The notes under the pieces: model-generated
The model's input: the letters and a program-made list of their open reading frames with translations, nothing else
What the model was told of the DNA's origin: nothing
Databases searched by the model: none
Position numbers and translations under genes: made by a program
Source: Pristiophorus japonicus
Lineage: Eukaryota
Direction: 5' to 3'
Assembly (NCBI RefSeq): GCF_044704955.1
Contig: NC_091995.1
Location: 76,508,001 to 76,572,000 of the forward strand
DNA: 64,000 nt
Shown: positions 7,539 to 61,565 of the stretch, piece by piece
Layout of the letters: every line of letters starts with the position of its first letter
How positions within the stretch are numbered: the first letter of the stretch is position 1

Positions 7539-10500
7539 GGGCCTAACTTTGAAGGTATGAGACGTGAATTGGCTAGGATAGATTGGCGAATGATATTTAA
7601 GGGGTTGCCTGTGGATGGGCAATGGCAGACATTTAGAGACCGCATGGATGAAAAAATACAACAATTGTACATCCCTGTCTGGCGTAAAAATAAAAAAGGG
7701 AAGGTGGCTCAACCGTGGCTATCAATGGAAATCAGGGATAGTATTAAAGCCAAGGAAGTGGCATACAAATTGGCCAGAAATAGCAGTGAACCCGGGGACT
7801 GGGAGAAATTTAGAACTCAGCAGAGGAGGACAAAGGGTTTGATTAGGGCAGGGAAAATGGAGTACGAGAAGAAGCTTGCAGGGAACATTAAGACGGACTG
7901 CAAAAGTTTCTATAGATATGTAAAGAGATAAAGGTTAGTAAAGACAAACGTAGGTCCCCTGCAGTCAGAATCAGGGGAAGTCATAACAGGGAACAAAGAA
8001 ATGGCGGACCAATTGAACAAGTACTTTGGTTCGATATTCACTGAGGAGGACACAAACAACCTTCCGGATATAAAAGGGGTCAGAGGGTCTAGTAAGGAGG
8101 AGGAACTGAGGGAAATCCTTATTAGTCGGGAAATTGTGTTGGGGAAATTGATGGGATTGAAGGCCGATAAATCCCCAGGGCCTGATGGACTGCATCCCAG
8201 AGTACTTAAGGAGGTGGCCTTGGAAATAGTGGATGCATTGACAGTCATTTTCCAACATTCCATTGACTCTGGATCAGTTCCTATGGAGTGGAGGGTAGCC
8301 AATGTAACCACACTTTTTAAAAAAGGAGGGAGCGAGAAAACAGGGAATTATAGACCGGTCAGCCTGACATCAGTAGTGGGTAAAATGATGGAATCAATTA
8401 CTAAGGATGTCATAGCAGTGCAGTTGGAAAGAGGTGACATGATAGGTCCAAGTCAGCATGGATTTGTGAAAGGGAAATCATGCTTGACAAATCTTCTGGA
8501 ATTTTTTGAGGATGTTTCCAGTAGAGTGGACAAGGGAGAACCAGTTGATGTGGTATATTTGGACTTTCAGAAGGCTTTCGACAAGGTCCCACACAAGAGA
8601 TTAATGTGCAAAGTTAAAGCACATGGGATTGGGGGTAGCGTGCTGACATGGATTGAGAACTGGTTGTCAGACAGGAAGCAAAGAGTAGGAGTAAATGGGG
8701 ACTTTTCAGAATGGCAGGCAGTGACTAGTGGGGTACCGCAAGGTTCTGTGCTGGGGCCCCAGCTGTTTACACTGTACATTAATGATTTAGACGAGGGGAT
8801 TAAATGTAGTATCTCCAAATTTGCGGATGACACTAAGTTGGGTGACAGTGTGAGCTGCGAGGAGGATGCTATGAAGCTGCAGAGCGACTTGGATAGGTTA
8901 GGTGAGTGGGCATGGCAGATGAAGTATAATGTGGATAAATGTGAGGTTATCCACTTTGGTGGTAAAAACAGAGAGACAGACTATTATCTGAATGGTGACA
9001 GATTAGGAAAAGGGGAGGTGCAACGAGACCTGGGTGTCATGGTACATCAGTCATTGAAGGTTGGCATGCAGGTACAGCAGGCGGTTAAGAAAGCAAATGG
9101 CATGTTGGCCTTCATAGCGAGGGGATTTCAGTACAGGGGCAGGGAGGTGTTGCTACAGTTGTACAGGGCCTTGGTGAGGCCACACCTGGAGTATTGTGTA
9201 CAGTTTTGGTCTCCTAACCTGAGGAAGGACATTCTTGCTATTGAGGGAGTGCAGTGAAGGTTCACCAGACTGATTCCCGGGATGGCAGGACTGACCTATC
9301 AAGAAAGACTAAATCAACTGAGCTTGTATTCACTGGAGTTCAGAAGAATGAGAGGGGACCTCATAGAAACGTTTAAAATTCTGATGGGTTTAGACAGGTT
9401 AGATGCAGGATGAATGTTCCCAATGTTGGGGAAGTCCAGAACCAGGGGTCACAGTCTAAGGATAAGGGATAAGCCATTTAGGACCGAGATGAGGAGAAAC
9501 TTCTTCACCCAGAGTGGTGAACCTGTGGAATTCTCTACCACAGAAAGTTGTTGAGGCCAATTCACTAAATATATTCAAAAAGGAGTAAGATGAAGTCCTT
9601 ACTACTAGGGGGATCAAGGGGAATGGCGAGAAAGCAGGAATGGGGTACTGAAGTTGCATGTTCAACCATGAACTCATTGAATGGCGGTGCAGGCTAGATG
9701 GGCCGAATGGCCTACTCCTGCACCTATTTTCTATGTTTCTATGTTTGCCCAACCCCATTTTGTGGCGCACTTACCTTAAGTGCGCTGACTTTGCGCGCTG
9801 GAAACGGCGCTGGAAAAAAGGGGCCCCATCCTGGCCGCTCTCCGAGTCCCCGGAGTCCCGGCGTGGTGTGCATTCTGAAGTGGGGGGGGGGGGGGGGGGG
9901 GGGGGGGCGGAGCAACAGGCCAGCACCAAAAACATTGCCGGCACCTGCGCGCATGCGCAGTGAAGTCTGCGCGCATGCTCCTGCCCTCTCAGCGTGTCCT
10001 GCGGGGCGTGAGCAGGACCCGATGCTCGCAGCCTCTATCACTGGCCAAAGGGACGCCCCAACCTTCGTCGCACTCTATCCATGGCCGAGTGGCCTCCTGC
10101 ACCTGCCGGCCGCTGAGTTCGTGGGCGAAGTAGGACTTCGGTTTTATTTCTTATTTATTGATTGTGCTTGAAAGTTTTGATTGGGGGGGGGGGGGGGGGG
10201 AGGAGGAGAAGAGTTTTTCTAGCCGCCGCCCCCCCCCCCCGGATGACATCGCGGCCAGCAGCTCGCATTTCTCTGGTTGCTCTGCGTAGCTGCCCGCCCC
10301 CGGTGACATCATGGTAGGATTTACTTCATTTTTATTAGCATTTTAATTGTTTGAGCTTTTCCTTGCAATGTTTGGTGCTTGGTTGTTGAGGTCCTCTCCA
10401 GTTCCCTTCCCTCCCCTATCCCTGCCCAAATGTGCGCTGCTTTTTCTTCACTGCCCGCAAGATTTTTCAGAGCTGGCCACATACGCTGACCTAAATCGAG

Positions 10501-43925: not shown

Positions 43926-44120
<195 letters not shown>

Positions 44121-45518
44121 TAAAATTACAGTTGCCTTGACCAATAACGCTCATAACTGCCAGTCAGCCAGGTGCATGGACCTGCCTGCGATCAATACTG
44201 AAGGGAACGAAATGTGGTCGGGCTCCATCTGGGTTCTTGTGTTGTGCACCTTGCCAGATGAAGGCAACAACTGACGGGCTAACTTGCAAAGGCACCGCAT
44301 GTTGTCATTGACAGCATTGTGTCGCTGATGGTGAAAACTGTTTTACGCTCTCCCATTTAAGAAAACTGAACGGCAGGTGGAGCCAAGAATACAGCAACTT
44401 ACATTTACATAGCGCCTATAACGTAGTAAAACATCCCAAGGCGTTGCACAGGAGCGTTACACTGAAATATCAGCACACAGTTATATCACTGTTGCAGCTT
44501 CTGTGCTGCTGAGCTATCCTATCTGAATTACAACTCAGTGGTGAGAGAAATTCAAATTGTGTGTGTCTTAATTGTCCATCACTGGGCCCCTCCTAACCCT
44601 GATTGTGCCTGGTTAGCTAGATATTGGCAGAGACCAGGACTGGGATAACAGATTTTTTTTTGTAGTCACAAGATTTGACTATACTTCACAATGAGCAAGG
44701 CTGTTGATTTAAATTTTAACAGCTACCTGACAATTTGGTGGGTCAGTGGGCTGCCCGATGTGCTTCTGAGCCATACAGCAGATGCCACATTCCAGATCTG
44801 GTCTGTGTTGGATCAACTGATCTTAACCAGCACAGCGGCAGAGATGTTGCAGTTGGCCACGTTGCGTTAAGCTTTTTAAAATTCACTTTTATGGGATGTG
44901 GACATCGCTGGCAAGGGCAACATTAATTGCCCTTGAGATGATGGTGGTAAGCCACCATTTCAGAGGGCAGGTAAGGGTCAACCACATTGCTGTAGGTCAG
45001 GAGTCACATATGGACCGGACCGGGTAAGGCCGGCAGATTTCATTCGAGGACATTAGTGAACCAGATGGGTTTTTACGACAATCTGGTAGTTACATGGTCA
45101 CCATTACCAATACTGGCGCTTTATTGCAGATTTATTTAATTAACTGAATTTTAATTCCCCAGCTGCCATGGTGGGATTTGAAAACTCATCCCCGGATCAT
45201 TAGGGAATTAAGGGTTGCGGGGAGCGGGCGGGTAAGTGGAGCTGAGTCCACAGCCAGATCAGCCATGATCTTATTGAATGGCGGAACAGGCTCGAGGGGC
45301 TAGATGGCCTACTCCTGTTCCTAATTCTTATGTTAGTCCAGTAACATGAGCACTGTGCCACTGTACCTGAAGCGAGGGAGGATTGATTCCTGCTCCTGAT
45401 CACGATCCACTGGAATGGTCACGTGTGTGATTGTTGGGTGAGGACCGGTTCGGGCTTTCCCTCCCACACACTCTCACTGTCTTGGCCAACACAACAAGGC
45501 TGGCCATTTTGCCAACAC

Positions 45519-46200
45519 TCCTGAAAGTTGTTGGTACTTTGACGGTTAAAGACAAACCCCTAGTTAAACCACACCTGGAGTACTGCGTTTCAGTTCTGGG
45601 CTCCACACCTTAGGAAAGATATATTGGCATGCAGCATGAAGGGAGTGCAGCGTAGATTTGCCAAAAAGTTAGCAGGACTCGAGGTTAAATTACGAGGAGT
45701 GATTACACAAAGGAGTGTTGTATTCCTTGGAATTTAGAAGATTAAGGGGTGATTTGATTGCTGTTCAGGGGAACAGATAGGGCCGATAGAGAGCAACTAT
45801 TTCCACTGGTTGGGGAATCTAGGACTAAGGGACATAGTCTAAAAATTATAGCGAGGGCTTTCAGGAAAGAACGACTTGCATTTATATAGCACATTCCATG
45901 ACCACCAGACGTCTCAAAGCGCTTCACAGCCAATGAAGTACATTCTTGGAGTGCAGTCACTGTTGTAATGGAGTAAAGTTAGGAAACACTTCGACATGCA
46001 AAGGGTGGTAGAAGTTTTGAACTGTCTTCCACAAACAGCAGTTGATGCTGGGTCAGTTGTTAACTTTAATTCTGAGATTGATAGATTTTCGTTAACCAAA
46101 GATATTAAGGGATATGGGGCAAAGGCAGAACAGGCTGGAGGAGCTAAATATTCCTACAAAGGGGCCACAGATGCAGTTGTAGAATATCTCTGGCCTGGTG
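45519..46200 (+). pseudogene. ACO2: Decayed duplicate of ACO2 exon 6 (pieces 45519-45551 and 46158-46200) split by a CR1 fragment
   Basis: LKVVGTLTVK and KGATDAVVEYLWPG versus real exon 6 [23 protein letters not shown]; 28/33 and 34/43 nt identity by hand alignment. Confidence 0.75.
45552..46157 (+). mobile_element. CR1 3' fragment with a nested SINE tail (~45868-45968, minus)
   Basis: LVKPHLEYCV...TKGHSLKI...QRVVEVLNCLPQ...IKGYGAKA. Confidence 0.8.
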
Positions 46201-46804
46201 ATTGCTCACTATTCCAGAATGATTCTGGAATGTAAAGATAAATCCCGGCTCCACTGCTAACTGTCTTTTTAAACCCCTCTCCCCAGTCGCCACCTTCACC
46301 TCCAACAATAAGTGTGAGGAGCTCATGGGCTTCTTTGTCTCGAAGATCCGTTCGGCCACCTCTGCTTCTTCCCTTCCTTCTCCTAAGGATTCCCCCTGCC
46401 CCAGCCCTGACCTCACATCTTTCTCCAGTTTCTCTCCGATCTCCACTCGTGACCTTTCCGAGCTCATCCTGTCTGAGGCCCACTTCCTGCTCCCTTGACC
46501 CTATTCCCACCAAACCGCTGACCACCCAACTTCCTTTTCTGGCTCCCATGTTAGCTGACATTGTTAACGCTTCTCTCTCCTCAGGTACTGTCCCCCTTCT
46601 TCAAATCTGCTGTCATCTCCCTTCTCCTCAAAAATCATCCCCCGATCCCTCCGTCCTTGCAAACTTACCGCTCCATCTCCAACATCCCTTTCCTCTTCAA
46701 AGTACTTGAACGTGTTGTCGCCTCCCAAATCCGTGCCCCTCTTTCCCACAATTCCAGTTTGAATCCCTCCAATCAGGTTTCTGCCCCAGTCACCGTGCCG
46801 AAAC

Positions 46805-49800
46805 ATAAGAACATAAGAATTAGGAACAGGAGTAGGCCATCTAGCCCCTCGAGCCTGCTCCGCCATTCAATAAGATCATGGCTGATCTGGTCGTGGACTC
46901 AGCTCCACTTACCCGCCCTCTCCCCATAACCCTTAAAAATCTATCTATCTTTGACTTGAAAACATTCAATGACCTAGCCTCAACTGCTTCCTTGGGCAGA
47001 GAATTCCACAGATTCACAACCCTCTGGGAGAAGAAATTCTTTCTCAACTCGGTTTTAAATTGGCTCCTCTGTATTTTGAGGCTGTGCCCCCTAGTTCTAG
47101 TCTCCCCGACCAATGGAAACAAACTCTCTGCCTCTATCTTGTCTATCCCTTTCATGATTTTAAATGTTTCTATAAGATCACCCCTCATCCTTCTGAACTC
47201 CAAGGAGTAAAGACCCAGTCTACTCAATCTATCATCATAAGGTAACCCCCTCATTTCTGGAATCAGCCTAGTGAATCGTCTCTGTACCCCTTCCAAAGCC
47301 AGAATATCCTTCCTTAAGTACTTCAGGTGCGGCCTTACCAATAACTTATACAGTTGCAGCAACACCTCCCTGCTTTTGTACTCCATCCCTTTCGCAATGA
47401 AGGCCAACATTCCATTTGCCTTCCTGATTTCCTGATTACCTGCTGCACCTGCAAACTAACCTTTTGGGATTCATGTACAAGGACCCCCAGGTCCCTCTGC
47501 ACCACAGCATGTTGTAATTTCTCCCCATTCAAATAATATTCCCTTTTACTGTTTTTTTTTTTCCCAAGGTGGATGACCTCACACTTTCCGACATTGTATT
47601 CCATCTGCCAAACCTTAGCCCATTCGCTTAACCTATCCAAATCTCCTTGCAGCCTCTCTGAGTCCTCTACACAACCCGCTTTCCCACTAATCTTAGTGTC
47701 ATCTGCAAATTTTGTTGCACTACACTCTGTCCCCTCTTCTAGGTCATCTATGTATATTGTAAACAGTTGTGGTCCCAGTACTGATCCCTGTGGCACACCA
47801 CTAACCACTGATTTCCAACCCGAAAAGGACCCATTTATCCCGACTCTCTGCTTTCTGTTCGCCAGCCAATTCTCTATCCATGCTAATACATTTCCTCTGA
47901 CTCCGTGTACCTTTATCTTCTGCAGTAACCTTTTGTGTGGCACCTTATCGAATGCCTTTTGGAAATCTAAATACACCACATCCATCGGTACACCTCTATC
48001 CACCATGCTCGTTATATCCTCAAAGAATTCCAGTAAGTTAGTTAAACATGATTTCCCCTTCATGAATCCATGCTGCGTCTGCTTGATTGCACTATTCCTA
48101 TCCAGATGTCCCGCTATTTCTTCCTTGATGATAGTTTCAAGCATTTTCCCCACTACAGATGTTAAACTAACTGGCCTATAGTTACCTGCCTTTTGCCTGC
48201 CCCCTTTTTTAAACAGAGGCGTTACATTAGCTGCTCTCCAATCCGCTGGTACCTCCCCAGAATCCAGAGAATTTTGGTAGATTATAAACAAATGCATCTG
48301 CTATAACTTCCGCCATCTCTTTTAATACCCTGGGATGCATTTCATCAGGACCAGGGGACTTGTCTACCTTCAGTCCCATTAGTCTGTCCAGCACTACCTC
48401 CCTAGTGATAGTGATCATCTCAAGGTCCTCCCTTCCCACATTCCTATGACCAGCAATTTTTGGCATGGTTTTTGTGTCTTCCACTGTGAAGACGGAAGCA
48501 AAATAATTGTTTAAGGTCTCAGCCATTTCCACATTTCCCATTATTAAATCCCCCTTTTCATCTTCTAAGGGACCAACATTTACTTTAGTCACTCTTTTCC
48601 GTTTTATATATCTGTAAAAGCTTTTACTATCTGTTTTTATGTTTTGCGCAAGTTTACCTTCGTAATCTATCTTCCCTTTCTTTATTGCTTTTTTAGTCAT
48701 TCTTTGCTGTTGCTTAAAATTTTCCCAATCCTCTAGTTTCCCACTAACCTTGGCCACCTTATACGCATTGGTCTTTGATTTGATACTTTCCTTTATTTCC
48801 TTGGTTATCCACGGCTAGTTATCTCTTCTCTTGCCGCCCTTCTTTTTCACTGGAATATATTTTTGTTGCGCATTATGAAAGAGCTCCTTAAAAGTCCTCC
48901 ACTGTTCCTCAATTGTGCCACCGTTTAGTCCTTGTTTCCAGTCTACTTTAGCCAACTCTGCCCTCATCCCACTGTCGTCCCCTTTGTTTAAGCATAGTAC
49001 GCTCGTTTCTGACACAACTTCCTCATCCTCAATCTGTATTACAAATTCAACCATATTGTGATCACTCATTCCGAGAGGATATTTTACGAGGAGATCGTTT
49101 ATTTTTCCTGTCTCGTTACACAGGACCAGATCCAAAATGGCTTGCTCCCTTGTAGGCTCTGTTACATACTGTTCTAAGAAACAATCCCGTATGCATTCTA
49201 TGAATTCCTCCTCCAGGCTACCCCCTGCGATTTGATTTGACCAATCGATATGTAAAATCCCCCATAACTACTGCCGTTCCTTTTTCACATGCCTCCATTA
49301 TTCCCTTGATTATTGACTGTCCCACCATGAAGTTATTATTTGGGGGCCTATAAACTACGCCGACCAGTGACTTTTTCCCCTTACTATCTCTATCTCCACC
49401 CACAATGTTTCAACATTTTGTTCATTGGAGCCAATATCATCCCTCACAACTGCCCTGATATCATCCTTTATTAACAGAGCTACCCCACCTCCTTTCCCTT
49501 CTTGCCTATCTTTCTGAATCGTCAGATACCCCTGTATGTTTAATTCCCAGTCTTGGCCACCTTGCAACCATGTTTCTGTAATGTCCACCAAATCATACCC
49601 GTTTGTAATGATTTGTGCCGTCCACTCATTTACTTTATTTCGAATGCTGCGTGCATTTAGGTAGAGTGTTTTCATCCTAGTTTTTAAACCATGATTTTTA
49701 GTTTTTACCCCTCCTGCAGCCCTTTTAATATTCAGTGGCCCTTTTTGTTTCTTGCCTTTGGTTTCTCTGCCCTCCACTTTTACTCATCTCTTTTCTGTCT

Positions 49801-51000
49801 TTTGTTTTTGTCTCCTTTTTGTTTCCCTCTGTCTCCCTGTATTGGTTCCCATCCCCCTGCCATATTAGTTTAACTCCTCACCAACAGCACTAGCAAACAC
49901 TCCCCCTAGGACATTGGTTCCGTTCCTGCCCAAGTGCAGACCGTCCGGTTTGTACTGGTCCCACCTCCCCCAGAACCTGTTCCAATGCCCCACGAATTTG
50001 AATTCCCTCCCTGCTGCACCACTGCTCAAGCCACGTATTCATCTGTGCTATCCTGCGATTCCTACTCTGACTAGCACGTGGCACTGGTAGCAATCCAGAG
50101 ATTACTACTTTTGAGGTCCTACTTTTTAATTTAACTCCTAGCTCCTTAAATTCGTCTCGTAGGACCTTATCCCTTTTTTTTTTTTACCTATGTCGTTGGT
50201 ACCAATGTTCACCACAACAACTGGCTGTTCTCCCTCCCTTTTCAGAATGTCCTGCACTCGCTCGGAGACATCCTTGACCCTTACACCAGGGAGGCAACAT
50301 ACCAACCTGGAGTCTCGATTGCGGCCGCAGAAACACCTATCTATTCCCCTTATGATTGAATCCCCTATCACTATCGCTCTCCCACTCTTTTTTATGCCCT
50401 CCTGTACAACAGAGCCAGCCACGGTGCCATGAACTTGGCTGCTGTTGCTCTCCCCTGATGAGTCATCTCCCTCAACAGCACTCAAAACAGTGTATCTGTT
50501 TTGCAGGGGGATGACCAGATGGGACCCCTGCACTACCTTCTTTGTACTACTCTTCCTGCTGGTCTTCCATTCCCTAGCTGGCTGTGGATCCTTCTCATGC
50601 GGTAAGACCAACTCACTACACGTGCCACTTATGTCATTCTCAGCATCGTGGATGCTCCAGAGTGAATCCACCCTCAGCTCCAATTCCGCAACGCGGTCCA
50701 TCAGGAGATGGAGGCGGATACACTTCTTACACACGTAGTCGTCAGGGACACCGGAAGCGTCCCTGAGTTCCCACATGGCACAGGAGGAGCATATCACGTG
50801 ACCGAGCTCTCCTGCCATGCCTTAACCCTTAGATACCCTTAAATTGGTAATAACAATGTTACAGTTTACTTACTGATATAAAAATAAAAAGAAAAGCTAC
50901 ACACCAATCACTTACCCCATTGGCTGTGACGTCACCTTTTGATTCCTTTCTACTTTTTTGCTTTCTCTCCCGCTGTAGCTGCACCGGTACGCCTTTTATA
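46805..51000 (-). mobile_element. Essentially full-length CR1 LINE (4.2 kb; (GTTCTTAT)n tail family), frameshifted
   Basis: 5'UTR, ORF1 from 50818, ORF2 endonuclease (LYLNARSIRNK, ITETWL, VVYRPP, MGDF, SDHN) and RT (YRPVSLTS, PQGSVLGP, KFADD). Confidence 0.95.
49890..50818 (-). pseudogene. CR1 ORF1 (Cys-rich zinc finger plus SGNH esterase-like domain), frameshifted near 50170
   Basis: CSSC...CKKC zinc finger; VIGDSIIRG, CLPG, VVVNIGTND esterase blocks; continuation LPVPRAS in ORF 49890-50093. Confidence 0.85.
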
Positions 51001-52015
51001 GGCTCTCATCAAAGTCACAAATGACATCCTCTATGACTGGGACAAAGGCAAATTATCCCTCCTTGTCTTTCTTGACTTGTCTGCAGCCTTTGACACAGTT
51101 GACCACTCTATCCTTCTCCAACACCTCTCCACCACCGTCCAACTGGGTGGGACTGCACTCGCCTGGTTCCATTCCTATCCATCTAATCATAGCCAGAGAA
51201 TCACCTGCAACAGCTTCTCTTCCTTGGCGACATCCTCCGAAAACACTCAGTTTCCACATGTACACTGATGATACCCAGCTCTACCTCACTACCACTTCTC
51301 TCAGCTCAACAATCCCCGCCCCTCCCCCACCCCGAGATGTCTGCGCTCCTCTAATTCTGCCCTCTTGAGCATCACTGATTATAATCGCTCCACCATTGGT
51401 GGGCGCGCCTTCTGTTGCCTAGGAACTCCCTCCCTAAACCTCTCCGCCTCGCTTTCCTTCTTCAGGATGCTCCTTAAAACCCACCTCTTTCACCTGCCCT
51501 AATTTCTCCTTATGCAGCTCGGTGTCAAATTTTTCTCCCTACTCCTATAGTGCCTTGGGATGTTTCACTACATTAAAGGCGCTATATAAATGCAAGTTGT
51601 TGTGGTGTGGAATTCGGGTCCTGCACAGATACATAAATGGAGCTGAACCGTAATCAGATCACTGGTGTTCGTGGAACCACATCACGGAAAATCAGTGCTT
51701 TTGTAGAAAGGGGGCGGGAGAGAAGAAACACAGCTCTTTATGTTTGAGGGATTTTAGAATCCACATCAATTGCTGTTCGTATATTTCCCTGTGTGGTACA
51801 TGCAAACTACAAAACCGGTTAAAATTCCATCCTTAAAGTGGGTCTCCTTCATACCAGCATTGAATCAGTGTGCAAAAAATTGGATTGTTTTACAGTAATA
51901 AGCAATGGTTCATTCAGACTGCTCCTACCTCTGTTTCTGGTCATTCTGGCGCAAGCTGGTTTCACCTCGAGGTGTTTGGAATATTGTGAAGTAAAACACT
52001 TTGTTTGCTGTTTAG

Positions 52016-52171
<156 letters not shown>

Positions 52172-52424
52172 TAAGATAGAGCTGTACTGCAAGGTCACTC
52201 TAGACAATCATAATGGTATGTTTACAATATTGCTTTCCTTCCTACAATCTGCAGGCTATTAAAGTTTATCCTCGCCTAATCACTGCCCTAGTTTACCTTG
52301 TCTTCTGTCCTGTTTTTTTTTCAACCTTGAACCATCTGGCTGTGGTTCTTCAGCTTACCTTATGCTTTGGTTTGTTTTGCTCCTTGTGCTGTTTTAGCCG
52401 ATAGTGGGGATACTGTAATCAATG

Positions 52425-52882
52425 TTCCTGAACTGCGAACAGTTTTGGTCTTTAAGGAGGGATATCCTTGCATTGGAGACGTTTCACTAGATTGATTCCT
52501 GGGATGAAGAAAGATTGAGCAGGTTGGGCCTATACGCACTGGATTTTAGAAGAATGAGAGGTGATCTTATTGAAACATACAAGATTCTGAGTTGGCTTGA
52601 CAGGGTCGATGCAGAGAGGATGTTTCCCCTCGTCGGGGAATCTAGAACTAGGGGCCATAGTTTCAGAATAAAACAGAGATGAGGAGGAATTTCTTCTCTC
52701 CGGGTTGTGAATCTTTGGAATTCTCTACTTCAGAGAGTTGTGGAGACTGGGTCGTTGACTATATTTAAAGCGGAGATAGAGAAATTTGAGGTTATGCGAG
52801 CGGGCAGGAAAGTGGAGTTGAGGCCACGATCTTATTGAATGGCAGAGCAGGCTCGAGGGGCCAAATGGCCTACTCCTATTAT
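52425..52882 (+). mobile_element. CR1 LINE 3' end with deletions
   Basis: agaagaatgagaggtgatcttattgaaac...aaatggcctactcct. Confidence 0.8.
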
Positions 52883-53171
52883 TGTGTTAAGCCGTGCGGT
52901 GGTTTGGAGGTGGAGGTACTGCACAGGCCGGTCACCGGCTTTTGAATGGAAAAACTGCACATTTGTGGAAATTTGAATGGGCCATACATCATTAAAGGGG
53001 CCATGTACCCCCCCACCCCCCCAAAAAAAATGAGGAAACATTGAATATAATTACTCTTGGCATCCCTAAGGGAGAGGGGAAAGTTAGCCAGAGGTCCTGT
53101 TGCTCATCACAATCAGTTAACGCCTGCAGGAATTGGGTGCATGTGTGGTGACGCATTTGGGTGCGTTATAA

Positions 53172-56100
53172 CATAGAAACATAGAAAATAGGTGCAGGAG
53201 TAGGCCATTCGGCCCTTCTAGCCTGCACCGCCATTCAATGAGTTCATGGCTGAACATGCAACTTCAGTACCCCATTCCTGCTTTCTCACCATACCCCTTG
53301 ATTCCCCTAGTAGTAAGGACTTCATCTAACTCCTTTTTGAATATATTTAGTGAATTGGCCTCAACAACTTTCTGTGGTAGAGAATTCCACAGGTTCACCA
53401 CTCTCTGGGTGAAGAAATTCCTCCTCATCTCGGTCCTAAATGGCTTCCCCCTTATCCTTAGACTGTGACCCCTGGTTCTGGACTTCCCCAACATTGGGAA
53501 CATTCTTCCTACATCTAACCTGTCGAACCCCATCAGAATTTTAAACTTTTCTATGAGGTCCCCTCTCATTCTTCTGAACTCCAGTGAATACAAGCCCAGT
53601 TGATCCAGTCTTTCTTGATAGGTCAGTCCCGCCATCCCGGGAATCAGTCTGGTGAACCTTCGCTGCACTCCCTCAATAGCAAGAATGACCTTCCTCAGGT
53701 TAGGAGACCAAAACTGTACACAATACTCCAGGTGTGGCCTCACCAAGGCCCTGTACAATTGTAGCAACACCTCCCTGCCCCTGTACTCAAATCCCCTCGC
53801 TATGAAGGCCAACATGCCATTTGCTTTCTTAACCGCCTGCTGTACCTGCATGCCAACCTTCAATGACTGATGTACCATGACACCCAGGTCTCTTTGCACC
53901 TCCCCTTTTCCTAATCTGTCACCATTCAGATAATAGTCTGTCTCTCTGTTTTTACCACCAAAGTGGATAACCTCACATTTATCCACATTATACTTCATCT
54001 GCCATGCATTTGCCCACTCACCTAACCTATCCAAGTCACTCTGCAGCCTCATAGCATCCTCCTCGCAGCTCACACTGCCACCCAACTTAGTGTCATCCGC
54101 AAATTTGGAGATACTACATTTAATCCCCTCGTCTAAATCATTAATGTACAGTGTAAACAGCTGGGGCCCCAGCACAGAACCTTGCGGTACCCCACTAGTC
54201 ACTGCCTGCCATTCTGAAAAGTCCCCATTTACTCCTACTCTTTGCTTCCTGTCTGACAACCAGTTCTCAATCCATGTCAGCACACTACCCCCAATCCCAT
54301 GTGCTTTAACTTTGCACATTAATCTCTTGTGTGGGACCTTGTCGAAAGCCTTCTGAAAGTCCAAATATACCACATCAACTGGTTCTCCCTTGTCCACTCT
54401 ACTGGAAACATCCTCAAAAAATTCCAGAAGATTTGTCAAGCATGATTTCCCTTTCACAAATCCATGCTGACTTGGACCTATCATATTACCTCTTTCCAAA
54501 TGCACTGCTATGACATCCTTAATAATTGATTCCATCATTTTACCCACTACCGATGTCAGGCTGACCGGTCTGTAATTCCCTGTTTTCTCTCTCCCTCCTT
54601 TTTTTAAAAAGTGGGGTTACATTGGCTACCCTCCACTCCATAGGAACTGATCCAGAGTCAATGGAATGTTGGAAAATGACTGTCAATGCATCCACTATTT
54701 CCAAGGCCACCTCCTTAAGTACTCTCGGATGCAGTCCATCAGGCCCTGGGGATTTAACGGCCTTCAATCCCATCAATTTCCCCAACACAATTTCCCGACT
54801 AATAAGGATTTCCCTCAGTTCCTCCTCCTTACTAGACCCTCCGACCCCTTTTATATCCGGAAGGTTGTTTGTGTCCTCCTCAGTGAATACTGAACCAAAG
54901 TACTTGTTCAATTGGTCCGCCATTTCTTTGTTCCCCGTTATGACTTCCCCTGATTCTGACTGCAGGGGACCTACGTTTGTCTTTATTAACCTTTTTCTCT
55001 TTACATACCTATAGAAACTTTTGCAATCTGTCTTAAAGTTCCCTGCAAGCTTCTTCTCGTACTCCATTTTCCCTGCCCTAATCAAACCCTTTGTCCTCCT
55101 CTGCTGAGTTCTAAATTTCTCCCAGTCCCCAGGTTCGCTGCTATTTCTGGCCAATTTGTATACCACTTCCTTGGCTTTAATGCTATCCCTGATTTCCCTT
55201 GATAGCCACGGTTGAGCCACCTTCCCTTTTTTATTTTTACGCCAGACTGGAATGTACAATTGTTGTAGTTCATCCATGCGGTCTCTAAATGTCTGCCATT
55301 GCCCATCCACAGTCAACCACTTCAGTATCATTCGCCAATCTATCCTAGCCAATTCACGCCTCGTACCTTCAAAGTTACCCTTCTTTAAGTTCTGGACCAT
55401 GGTCTCTGAATTAACTGTTTCATTCTCCATCCTAATGCAGAATTCCACCATATTATGGTCACTCTTCCCCAAGGGGCCTCGCACAACGAGATTGCTAATT
55501 AATCCTCTCTCATTATGCAACACCCAGTCTAAGATGGCCTCCCCCCTAGTTGGTTCCTCGACATATTGGTCTAAAAATCCATCCCTTATGCACTCCAGGA
55601 AATCCTCCTCCACCGTATTGCTTCCAGTTTGGTTAACCCAATCTATGTGCATATTAAAGTCACCCATTATAACTGCTGCACCTTTATTGCACGCACCCCT
55701 AATTTCATGTTTGATGCCCTCCCCAACATCACTACCACTGTTTGGAGGTCTGTACACAACTCCCACTAAACGTTTTTTGCCCTTTGGTATTCTGCAGCTC
55801 TACCCATATAGGTTCCACATCATCCAAGCTAATGTCCTTCTGAACTATTGCATTAATCTCCTCTTTAACCAGCAATGCTATCCCACCTCCTTTTCCTTTT
55901 ATTCTATCCTTCCGAAATGTTGAATACCCCTGGATGTTGAGTTCCCAGCCCTGATCATCCTAGAGCCACGTCTCTGTAATCCCAATCACATCATATTTGT
56001 TAACATCTATTTTCACAGTTAATTCATCCACCTTATTGCGGATACTCCTTGCATTAAGACACAAAGCCTTCAGGTTTGTTTTTTTAACACCCTTTGTCCT

Positions 56101-58669: not shown

Positions 58670-61565
58670 CCCAGGGTATTTATCCCAGAGCACTAAAGGA
58701 GACTAGGAAGATTAGCGCGGTATCGACCGTTATTGTGAGGGAGTTATTGGAGAGGAACCAGGAGCTGGGCATTAGGCCAACATAATGCCCATATTCAAAG
58801 AAGACGACAACTCAGATACAGATCACTACAGACCCATTAGTATTACTTCAATCCCATGTGAAATAATGGCATCGATTATCGGCTGTAATACTAAATTAGT
58901 AAACAGCAGTTAACAGCCCATATAAGAGCTGAGATGCTGGCTATCGCTGACCAGCCTCTTTGACTTTATTGAGGAAGTGACCTCTTAAGGGGACATTACA
59001 ACAAAGCATGCCTAGATTTCCGAAGGCATTTATAAGAACATAAGAATTAGGAACAGGAGTAGGCCATCTAGCCCCTCGAGCCTGCTCCGCCATTCAACAA
59101 GATCATGGCTGATCGGCTGTGGACTCAGCTCCACTTACCCGCCCACTCCCCATAACCCTTAATTCCCTTATTGGTTAAAAAATCTATCTATCTGATTTGA
59201 ATACATTCAATGAGCTAACCTCAACTGCTTCCCTGGGCAGAGAATTCCACAGATTCACAACCCTCTGGGAGAAGAAATTCTTTCTCAACCTGGTTTTAAA
59301 TTGGCTCCCCCGTATTTTGAGGCTGTGCCCTCTCGTTCTAGTCTCCCCGACCAGTGGAAACAATCTCTCTGCCTCTATCATGTCTATCCCTTTCATTATT
59401 TTAAATGTTTCTATAAGATCACCCCTCATCCTTCTGAACTCCAACGAGTAAAGACCCAGTCTGCTCCCATCTATCATCATAAGGTAACCCCCTCATCTCC
59501 GGAATCAGCCTCGTGAATTGTCTCTGTACCCCCTCCAAAGCTAGTATATCCTTCCTTAAGTAAGGTGACCAAAACTGCACGCAGTACTCCAGATGCGGCC
59601 TCACCAATACCCTATGCAGTTGTAGCAGGACCTCCCTGCTTTTGTACTCCATCCCTCGCAATGAAGGCCAACATTCCATTCGCCTTCCTGATTACCTGCT
59701 GCACCTGCAAACTAACTTTTTGGGATTCATGCACAAGGACCCCCAGGTCTCTCTGCACCTCAGCATGTTGTAATTTCTCCCCAATCAAATAATATTCCCT
59801 TTTACTGTTTTTTTTTTTTTCCCCAAGGTGGATGACCTCACATTTTCCGACATTATATTCCATCTGCTAAACCTTAGCCCATTCGCTTAACCTATCTAAA
59901 TCTCTTTGCAGCCTCTGTGTCCTCTACACAACCCGCTTTCCCACTAATCTTTGTGTCATCTGCAAATTTTGTTACACTACACTCTGTCCCCTCTTCCAGG
60001 TCATCTATATATATTGTAAACAGTTGTGTTCCAGCACCGATCCCTGTGGCACACCACTAACCACCGATTTCCAACCCGAAAAGGACCCACTTATCCCGAC
60101 TCGCTGCTTTTTGTTAGCCAGCCAATTCTCTATCCATGCTAATACATTTCCTCTGACTCCGCGTACCTTTATCTTCTGCAGTAACCTTTTGTGTGGCACC
60201 TTATCGAATGCCTTTTGGAAATCTAAATACACCACATCCATCGGTACACCTCTATCCACCATGCTCGTTATATCCTCAAAGAATTCCAATAAATTAGTTA
60301 AACATGATTTCCCTTTCATGAATCCATGTTGCGTCTGCTTGATTGCACTATTCCTATCCAGATGTCCCGCTATTTCTTCCTTAATGATAGCTTCAAGCAT
60401 TTTCCCCACTACAGATATTAAACTAACTGGCCTATAGTTACCTGCCTTTTGTCTGCCCCCTATTTTAAACAGAGGTGTTATATTAGCTGCTTTCCAATCC
60501 GCTGGTACCTCCCCAGAGTCCAGAGAATTTTGGTAGATTATAACGAATGCATCTGCTATAACTTCCGCCATCTCTTTTAATACCCTGGGATGCATTTCAT
60601 CATGACCAGGGGACTTGTCTACCTTGAGATCCATTAGCCTGTCCAGCATTACCCCCCTAGTGATAGTGATTGTCTCAAGGTCCTCCCTTCCCATATTCCC
60701 GTGACCAGCAATTTTTGGCATGGTTTGGCTTTTGTGTCTTCCACTGTGAAGACCGAAGCAAAATAATTATTTTAGGTCTCAGCCATTTCGACATTTCCCA
60801 TTATTAAATCCCCCTTCTCATCTTCTAAGGGACCAACATTTACTTTAGTCACTCTTTTCCGTTTTATATATCGGTAAAAGCTTTTACTATCTGTTTTTAT
60901 GTTTTGCGCAAGTTTACTTTCGTAATCTATCTTTCCTTTATTGCTTTCTTAGTCATTCTTTGCTGTCGTTTAAAATTTTCCCAATCCTCTAGTTTCCCAT
61001 TAACCTTGGCCACCTTATACGCATTAGTTTTTAATTTGATACTCTCCTTTATTTCTTTGGTTATCCACGGCTGGTTATCTCTTCTCTTACCACCCTTCTT
61101 TTTCACTGGAATATATTTTTGTTGAGCACTATGAAAAGCTAAAGTTAAACTCCAAGGTGTGGGATGAGACCGAGGTATGAATAAGAGACTGGCTGTGAAG
61201 GGTGAGAAAACCAGAGTTACATCTGGGTGGGGGGGGGGGGTACTGTGTAGTGAGTGAATCGGTGTTGGAACCACTAATTCCATCAGAAATCAAATGCAAA
61301 TTGGTTAAAAATGCAGATTATATCAATCTAGGAGGTGCAATGCATTTGGAGGAGGCAGTACAGAAAGTACAGAATTGGTTGGACAAAATATACAAGTGGG
61401 CAGAACAAAGGTAGCAAACTATTCTGATTGTAATGGTTCTCTGGTCAAACATGACCTTGCATACTTTGTCTAGTTCTGGTCATGGGGACATGCAGTTTTA
61501 AAGGCAGTGCAGAGAAGAGCCATAGATTATTGATCTAAGTTACAAATAAAAGCTGGAGAAACTTG
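58670..61565 (+). mobile_element. Old CR1 remnant split by a younger CR1 (pieces ~58670-59031 and ~61135-61565)
   Basis: YPRALKE, ANIMPIFK, YRPISITSIPC on the left; degenerate downstream RT on the right. Confidence 0.55.
59032..61135 (-). mobile_element. 5'-truncated CR1 LINE (same family as 46805-51000)
   Basis: ORF 60005-60721 RT motifs nearly identical to 47335-48757; (GTTCTTAT)n tail. Confidence 0.95.

Follow-up and report, generated by a model that had tools for sequence, protein, structure and literature searches.

Insertions of at least 50 bp that interrupt a transposable element (TE) and have one donor sequence less than 5 kb away have been described as repair-mediated duplications (Pace et al. 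2009, PMC2671141). In the available part of that paper, the donor lies more than 50 bp away, the length is at most 619 bp (median 147 bp), no poly(A) is present, and the junctions show 2-9 nt of microhomology, small deletions or filler. The same part reports 824 such events in human, 4 of them with partial exon/intron donors, and 80 in zebrafish, as well as two duplicated full exons without coding constraint; its ten species include no cartilaginous fish. A related process is germ-line microhomology-mediated templated insertion (MMB-TI) which, in the accessible text of PMC8421209, proceeds by a local template switch with 2-12 bp of microhomology and persists as a germ-line variant. For exon-like sequences within introns, the accessible portion of the Exonize paper (PMC12343006) states that fewer genes have full-exon duplications (4-7% of vertebrate genes) than have intronic or partial matches. 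Our literature search yielded no paper on the ACO2 locus described below or on exon duplication in shark ACO2.

In the window (the whole stretch of 64,000 nucleotides from Pristiophorus japonicus that was analysed), the + strand carries ACO2, whose exon map was established by tblastn. Exon 6 (52016-52166) matches mitochondrial aconitase in PDB and the Pfam Aconitase family. In spliced contigs from three runs, it is joined to exon 5 and to exon 7 at GT..AG borders; these runs correspond to three samples of the same organism in one study which are not on record as RNA, yet are spliced. The Pristiophorus japonicus ACO2 protein corresponds to the exon translations of this gene outside the alignment overhangs. 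Intron 5 contains one decayed copy of part of exon 6 lying inside an old SINE-like repeat, and we consider it very probable that this copy arose by a single repair-mediated duplication and was never an exon. The elements of the locus are the following.

44778-44865, + strand: host SINE-like repeat, 5' part (profile positions 3-90, E 4e-14)
45375-45524, + strand: host SINE-like repeat, middle part, which is the left flank of the copy (E 1.4e-15, profile built with 45331-45560 masked)
45519-45551, + strand: copy piece 1 (source 52074-52106; 28/33 identical; score reached by 0/300 shuffles)
45552-46157, + strand: CR1-type LINE, 5'-truncated, with a nested repeat at 45866-45977 and AAAG on both sides
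46158-46200, + strand: copy piece 2 (source 52103-52145; 34/43 identical; score reached by 0/300 shuffles; GCA where the exon has TCA)
46201-51603, + strand: L2-type LINE, 5'-truncated, in two parts (46201-46804 and 51001-51603), with GGTG on both sides
about 46805-51000, reverse strand: younger CR1-type element nested in the L2, which it interrupts at 46804/51001
51604-51663, + strand: copy piece 3 (source 52142-52199), which holds 21 nt from the exon end, the donor position and 33 nt of intron 6
51656-51705, + strand: host SINE-like repeat, 3' part, which is the right flank of the copy (profile positions 57-103, E 1.6e-5)
52016-52166, + strand: working ACO2 exon 6 (151 nt, AG..GT), which together with 52167-52199 is the donor (source) of the copy

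The sequence-only reading had taken pieces 1 and 2 for a fossil duplicate of exon 6 split by a CR1 insertion. Its match counts were reproduced exactly, and the two pieces are collinear and in the orientation of the gene, the intervening CR1 being flanked by AAAG in the manner of a target-site duplication. When one AAAG was removed, pieces 1 and 2 aligned to the exon at 58/72 positions, without a gap and in frame, and each of them scored above all its controls (dinucleotide shuffles, 300 each, against all of intron 5). The duplicate was real, but its description in two pieces was incomplete, as a third piece (51608-51663) beyond the L2 had been missed. When this piece was compared with the whole of intron 5, its score was reached by 0/500 shuffles, and a second comparison gave 0/2000; its exon part is 15/21 identical. 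With the CR1 and the L2 removed, the three pieces are identical to their source at 98 of the 125 aligned positions, and the exon part is gapless. The copy covers the 3' 93 nt of the 151-nt exon 6 (62%) and 33 nt of intron 6, and its donor position (51629-51630) reads AT, not GT. An earlier emphasis on third codon positions was not borne out: the 14 differences in the 72 nt are split 4/5/5 over codon positions 1, 2 and 3, without enrichment. The three pieces are a decayed, same-orientation, local DNA-level copy of part of exon 6.

That the pieces might be repeats, or a processed retrocopy, had already been envisaged. Whole-genome DNA searches with piece 1, piece 3 and exon 6 each retrieved the query itself only, and with piece 2 the remaining matches start at 46201 or later; these searches are word-based, skip common words and are not exhaustive. 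Furthermore, a 30-letter pattern common to exon and copy has two occurrences in 5.9 Gb, at exactly those two places. The pieces are non-repeat sequence with one donor found in the genome. When 18 exons were compared with the introns of the gene, matches below E 0.1 were obtained for exon 6 only, and 873 kb of DNA on the flanks contained no further exon-6 copy at E < 1. Weak tblastn matches downstream (E 0.18-0.9) were judged to be due to chance, and a search of Rfam over 44100-52500 gave 0 matches at E 0.5.

Concerning the retrocopy, neither the end of exon 5 nor the start of exon 7 matched at the copy above shuffles, and no poly(A/T) was found at its junctions (45519, 51663). Because the exon part is followed by intron 6, not by exon 7, the copy is not a processed retrocopy and its template was unspliced. 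A search of intron 5, covering both strands, for the acceptor, the first 58 nt of the exon and the 410 nt upstream found none of them. On the plus strand, no score for the missing 5' part exceeded its shuffles; on the minus strand, a single score was higher (35, compared with at most 34 among 30 shuffles), and it fell within a repeat. A weak match between 44517-44607 and 51849-51939 was set aside as chance (191/300 shuffles equal it), and an apparent leftward extension of the copy at 45497 belongs to the SINE.

The flanks of the copy belong to a SINE-like family with 67-68 matches in 873 kb of neighbouring DNA, which we take to resemble SacSINE1 / Deu-SINE, whose consensus has a tRNA head, a Deu domain and an L2-like tail. 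The 5' part of the host SINE is set apart from the middle part by other repeats; it was among the 28 matches behind an early family profile and does not constitute an independent test. A refined family profile was built on an 873 kb library in which 44701-52300 was masked, with 42 and then 67 members. On this profile, the left flank occupies positions 2 to about 55. The right flank was unmatched by the first 3'-extended profile (22 members), and its match came with 42, then 67 members.

When the two flanks were rejoined, they scored 21.3 bits versus 7.5 for the left flank alone, a score reached by 0/300 shuffled and by 2/300 random genomic right flanks. Among 660 possible joins, 10 of the best 11 fall on a single gapless diagonal, and the gapless rejoin scores 29-31 bits; the grid of joins was optimised, and its top score lacks a separate control. 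An insert of 112-126 nt thus separates position 55 or so from position 57 on the profile of one repeat family; the two halves of the repeat are collinear, and with the later LINEs set aside the distance from donor to acceptor site is 410 nt (51663 to 52074). Since the flanks rejoin gaplessly, we conclude that a segment was inserted into a repeat. The tandem exon duplication proposed by the sequence-only reading does not fit this arrangement: the acceptor and the first 58 nt are missing, and the copy sits in a SINE. The state before insertion is deduced from a noisy family profile, because both relatives described below carry the copy and no empty site was seen. Successive insertions have spread the single old SINE-like host element over about 7 kb.

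At the junctions, copy and source share 8/9 letters on the left and 7/8 on the right; the SINE consensus has part of this similarity too, and the first 6-8 letters of piece 1 resemble SINE and exon alike. This similarity is compatible with microhomology, the borders being blurred after about 20-22% decay; given the age of the SINE and its loose match close to the junctions, microhomology and copied letters look the same here.

The following course of events would account for this layout. A germ-line break would have occurred in the SINE, at a point about 410 nt upstream of the later template. One broken end would have been primed on a few similar letters within exon 6, and synthesis of 112-126 nt would have proceeded past the donor site. 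The new strand would then have re-annealed to the other end, leaving the SINE without net loss. A copy devoid of an acceptor would escape the splicing machinery and decay neutrally, and the working exon likely switched from Ala to Ser after copying.

An identical final layout, also in direct orientation, could result if about 540 nt, from the SINE interior to intron 6, had been duplicated in tandem and a separate deletion had then taken the acceptor and the first 58 nt from the upstream copy; in this case, too, the copy would never have functioned. The loss of the acceptor might then have been favoured, given that a transcript with two full 151-nt exons would be out of frame. However, this scheme requires two events and would be less parsimonious, as the deletion must begin within a few bases of the duplication's own start to leave a gapless SINE. 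In addition, intron 5 yielded no remnant of the 410 nt. We regard this route as unlikely.

The CR1 and the L2 which split the copy each inserted later with a 4-nt target-site duplication (AAAG and GGTG, respectively). The element at 45552-46157, which we take to be a CR1 from a motif in its translation, is 75-88% identical to other local copies; it is truncated at 45552, since family members extend further upstream. The element at 46201-51603, presumably an L2, begins in mid-element at 46201, the base after piece 2, resumes at 51001 and ends with its tail at 51603; matches to RVT_1 (Pfam) are found in this LINE region. A chimera of ACO2 RNA and truncated L2 was also considered as the origin of the copy and was dropped in view of piece 3, of the GGTG duplication and of relatives devoid of the L2. 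The element at about 46805-51000 retains reverse-transcriptase frames of up to 321 aa. Two pairs of young LINE copies of about 2.1-2.2 kb are present in the window: 7544-9745 and 53170-55377, an inverted pair, are 96.7% identical, and 46805-48885 and 59032-61140 are 91.4% identical.

Two relatives, B and C, are represented by contigs from one study (runs X8 and X11), with 92-93 letter differences from this genome over 51657-52429. Both carry the copy, in the form of a stretch which aligns to 52115-52169 with 8/55 differences from the exon. Over the same interval, the copy in this genome differs from its own exon at 14/55 positions, a contrast that may reflect faster change in this lineage or slower change in B and C. 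In both relatives, the 25 letters equivalent to 51632-51656 come after the copy stretch and are followed by the intron. The L2 is absent from B and C, whose contigs run across its site. As the alignment ends on GTA, the donor GT is likely intact in both. The CR1 is likely shared with them, because the letters before the copy resemble the 3' tail of the CR1 family when compared by eye, and a few bases beside the CR1 were likely lost in B and C. The intron 6 stretches 52229-52263 and 52294-52330 also match separate contigs of the relatives (X8, X11) and may therefore be pieces of low-copy repeats.

In the relatives which keep GT, the donor of the copy could pair up with a cryptic acceptor that the SINE or the CR1 supplies and so provide a poison exon which would tune aconitase via nonsense-mediated decay. 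We think this very unlikely; if true, a splicing switch in a core TCA-cycle gene would have been born from a repair scar.

The codon 52118-52120 of the working exon is TCA (Ser), where the copy has GCA (Ala), as pointed out by the sequence-only reading, which noted Ala in human ACO2 as well (KGGTGAIVEY). Ala is found at this position in 127/128 homologues with the full motif (which was present in 128/132 proteins of the set) and in three solved-structure alignments. The Ser codon is real, since the spliced contigs of other samples show no other letters across exon 6. Ala-to-Ser in the working exon is a lineage-specific change at a near-invariant aconitase position. Among named proteins, Ser occurs here in Pristiophorus japonicus only; therefore, the earlier state is likely retained in the GCA of the copy, with a probability of a few percent that GCA arose there by chance back-mutation. 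B and C likely have Ser as well, since the six T>G differences all precede 51862, a placement deduced from totals with 47 differences lying outside those listed. The likely order of events is the SINE, the copy, Ala-to-Ser and the CR1 (in either order), the split from B and C, and then the L2, the loss of the donor and the nested CR1.

The copy had also been proposed to represent a former mutually exclusive exon 6a, paired with the present exon 6 and later killed by a deletion and the CR1 insertion. Its 30 codons are in frame and its 90 coding nt contain no stop and no indel, as this reading would have it; however, the absence of stops is expected in 69% of neutral simulations, and that of indels has a chance of roughly 0.1-0.2 by hand estimate. 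Between copy and exon, 8.7 synonymous and 11.3 non-synonymous differences were counted, giving a dN/dS of 0.41. This value is below 1, but a value near 0.5 is expected when the working exon alone is constrained, and 0.41 falls inside the dead-on-arrival simulation (P(sim<=obs) 0.25), which fits neutral decay from birth. Constraint during 75% of the time was rejected by simulation (P 0.039), as was constraint during 90% (0/256), and constraint for 0-50% of the life of the copy was accepted (P 0.24 at up to half). The Ala codon was kept and the relatives likely still have the donor GT, features which would suit an exon; against this, the replacements in the copy fall on near-invariant positions, 9/10 of its changed residues are seen in 0/128 homologues, no acceptor is present and the flank is a SINE. 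Furthermore, distant branch points need a long AG-free zone, and the last AG ahead of the exon 6 acceptor is just 24 nt upstream, so that no such zone exists.

The lack of a second exon 6 in related species had been named as an argument against a former functional pair. The 23 named shark and ray proteins (19 species) have one exon 6 version, and the named shark and ray ACO2 isoforms differ at the N or C terminus. In the accessible supplements of two human catalogues (PMC8373072, PMC5740500), ACO2 gave 0 matches and the control OGDH was present; the main text of PMC9013439 has 0 mentions of ACO2. In the three runs, all from one study, the 5-6-7 joints are among the best 15 of 1456 contig joints, and joints into the copy are not among these 15 of 1456, which is not evidence of absence. 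As there is no acceptor, the replacements are odd, dN/dS is 0.41 and 5-6-7 contigs span the copy, the former pair is unlikely. We give the exon 6a reading hardly any credence, and the copy probably never worked as an alternative exon.

Finally, a patch that a LINE reverse transcriptase copied at the break from a nascent, still unspliced ACO2 transcript (class 2 templated sequence insertion) would agree with the sense orientation, the inclusion of intron, the lack of poly(A) and of a long duplication and the abundance of LINEs with reverse transcriptase in this region, but class 2 insertions come from distant and not nearby sites as far as the accessible text of PMC5110952 describes them, and a donor at a distance of 410 nt agrees with the proximal class in the available part of PMC2671141, which makes this origin exceedingly improbable. 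At this locus as such, a DNA template and a nascent pre-mRNA template cannot be told apart.

Returning to repair-mediated duplication as the preferred origin, it is well supported that the copy is a real fossil of a known, ordinary kind of scar, and on its own the finding matters little. It demonstrates that a stretch resembling an exon within an intron may be a scar of repair instead of an alternative exon that was lost, a choice decided by reading the flanking repeat, and it extends repair-mediated duplication to a shark lineage. The SINE, the copy, the Ala-to-Ser change, the CR1 and the L2, as nested events, can serve as presence/absence markers in shark phylogeny, and the copy likely keeps the ancestral codon at an otherwise almost invariant position.

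Compared with the systems described at the outset, the copy resembles tandem mutually exclusive exons such as those of OGDH in being a homologous exon-like stretch that adjoins an exon in the same orientation and frame. It differs from them by the lack of an acceptor, by its extent of 93/151 nt, by the AT at its donor position and by its radical replacements. With the class reported by Exonize, it shares the character of a degenerate intronic match to a neighbouring exon; this class is descriptive and without mechanism in the accessible part of PMC12343006, whereas the flanks of the ACO2 copy point to one. The MMB-TI events in the accessible part of PMC8421209 are recent, human and mostly with inverted templates, in contrast to the single direct stretch of about 120 nt found here. 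The closest likeness is to the proximal repair-mediated duplications: the copy is longer than 50 bp, lies inside a TE, has one donor less than 5 kb away and a length near their median, is devoid of poly(A) and has at its junctions short similar stretches that may be microhomology. It departs from the set presented in the available part of PMC2671141 in coming from a cartilaginous fish, in being far older (about 22% diverged) and split by two LINEs, and in that no empty site was seen. The interruption of a TE, the single donor, its distance and the lack of poly(A) are all observed at this locus, which fits a repair-mediated duplication.
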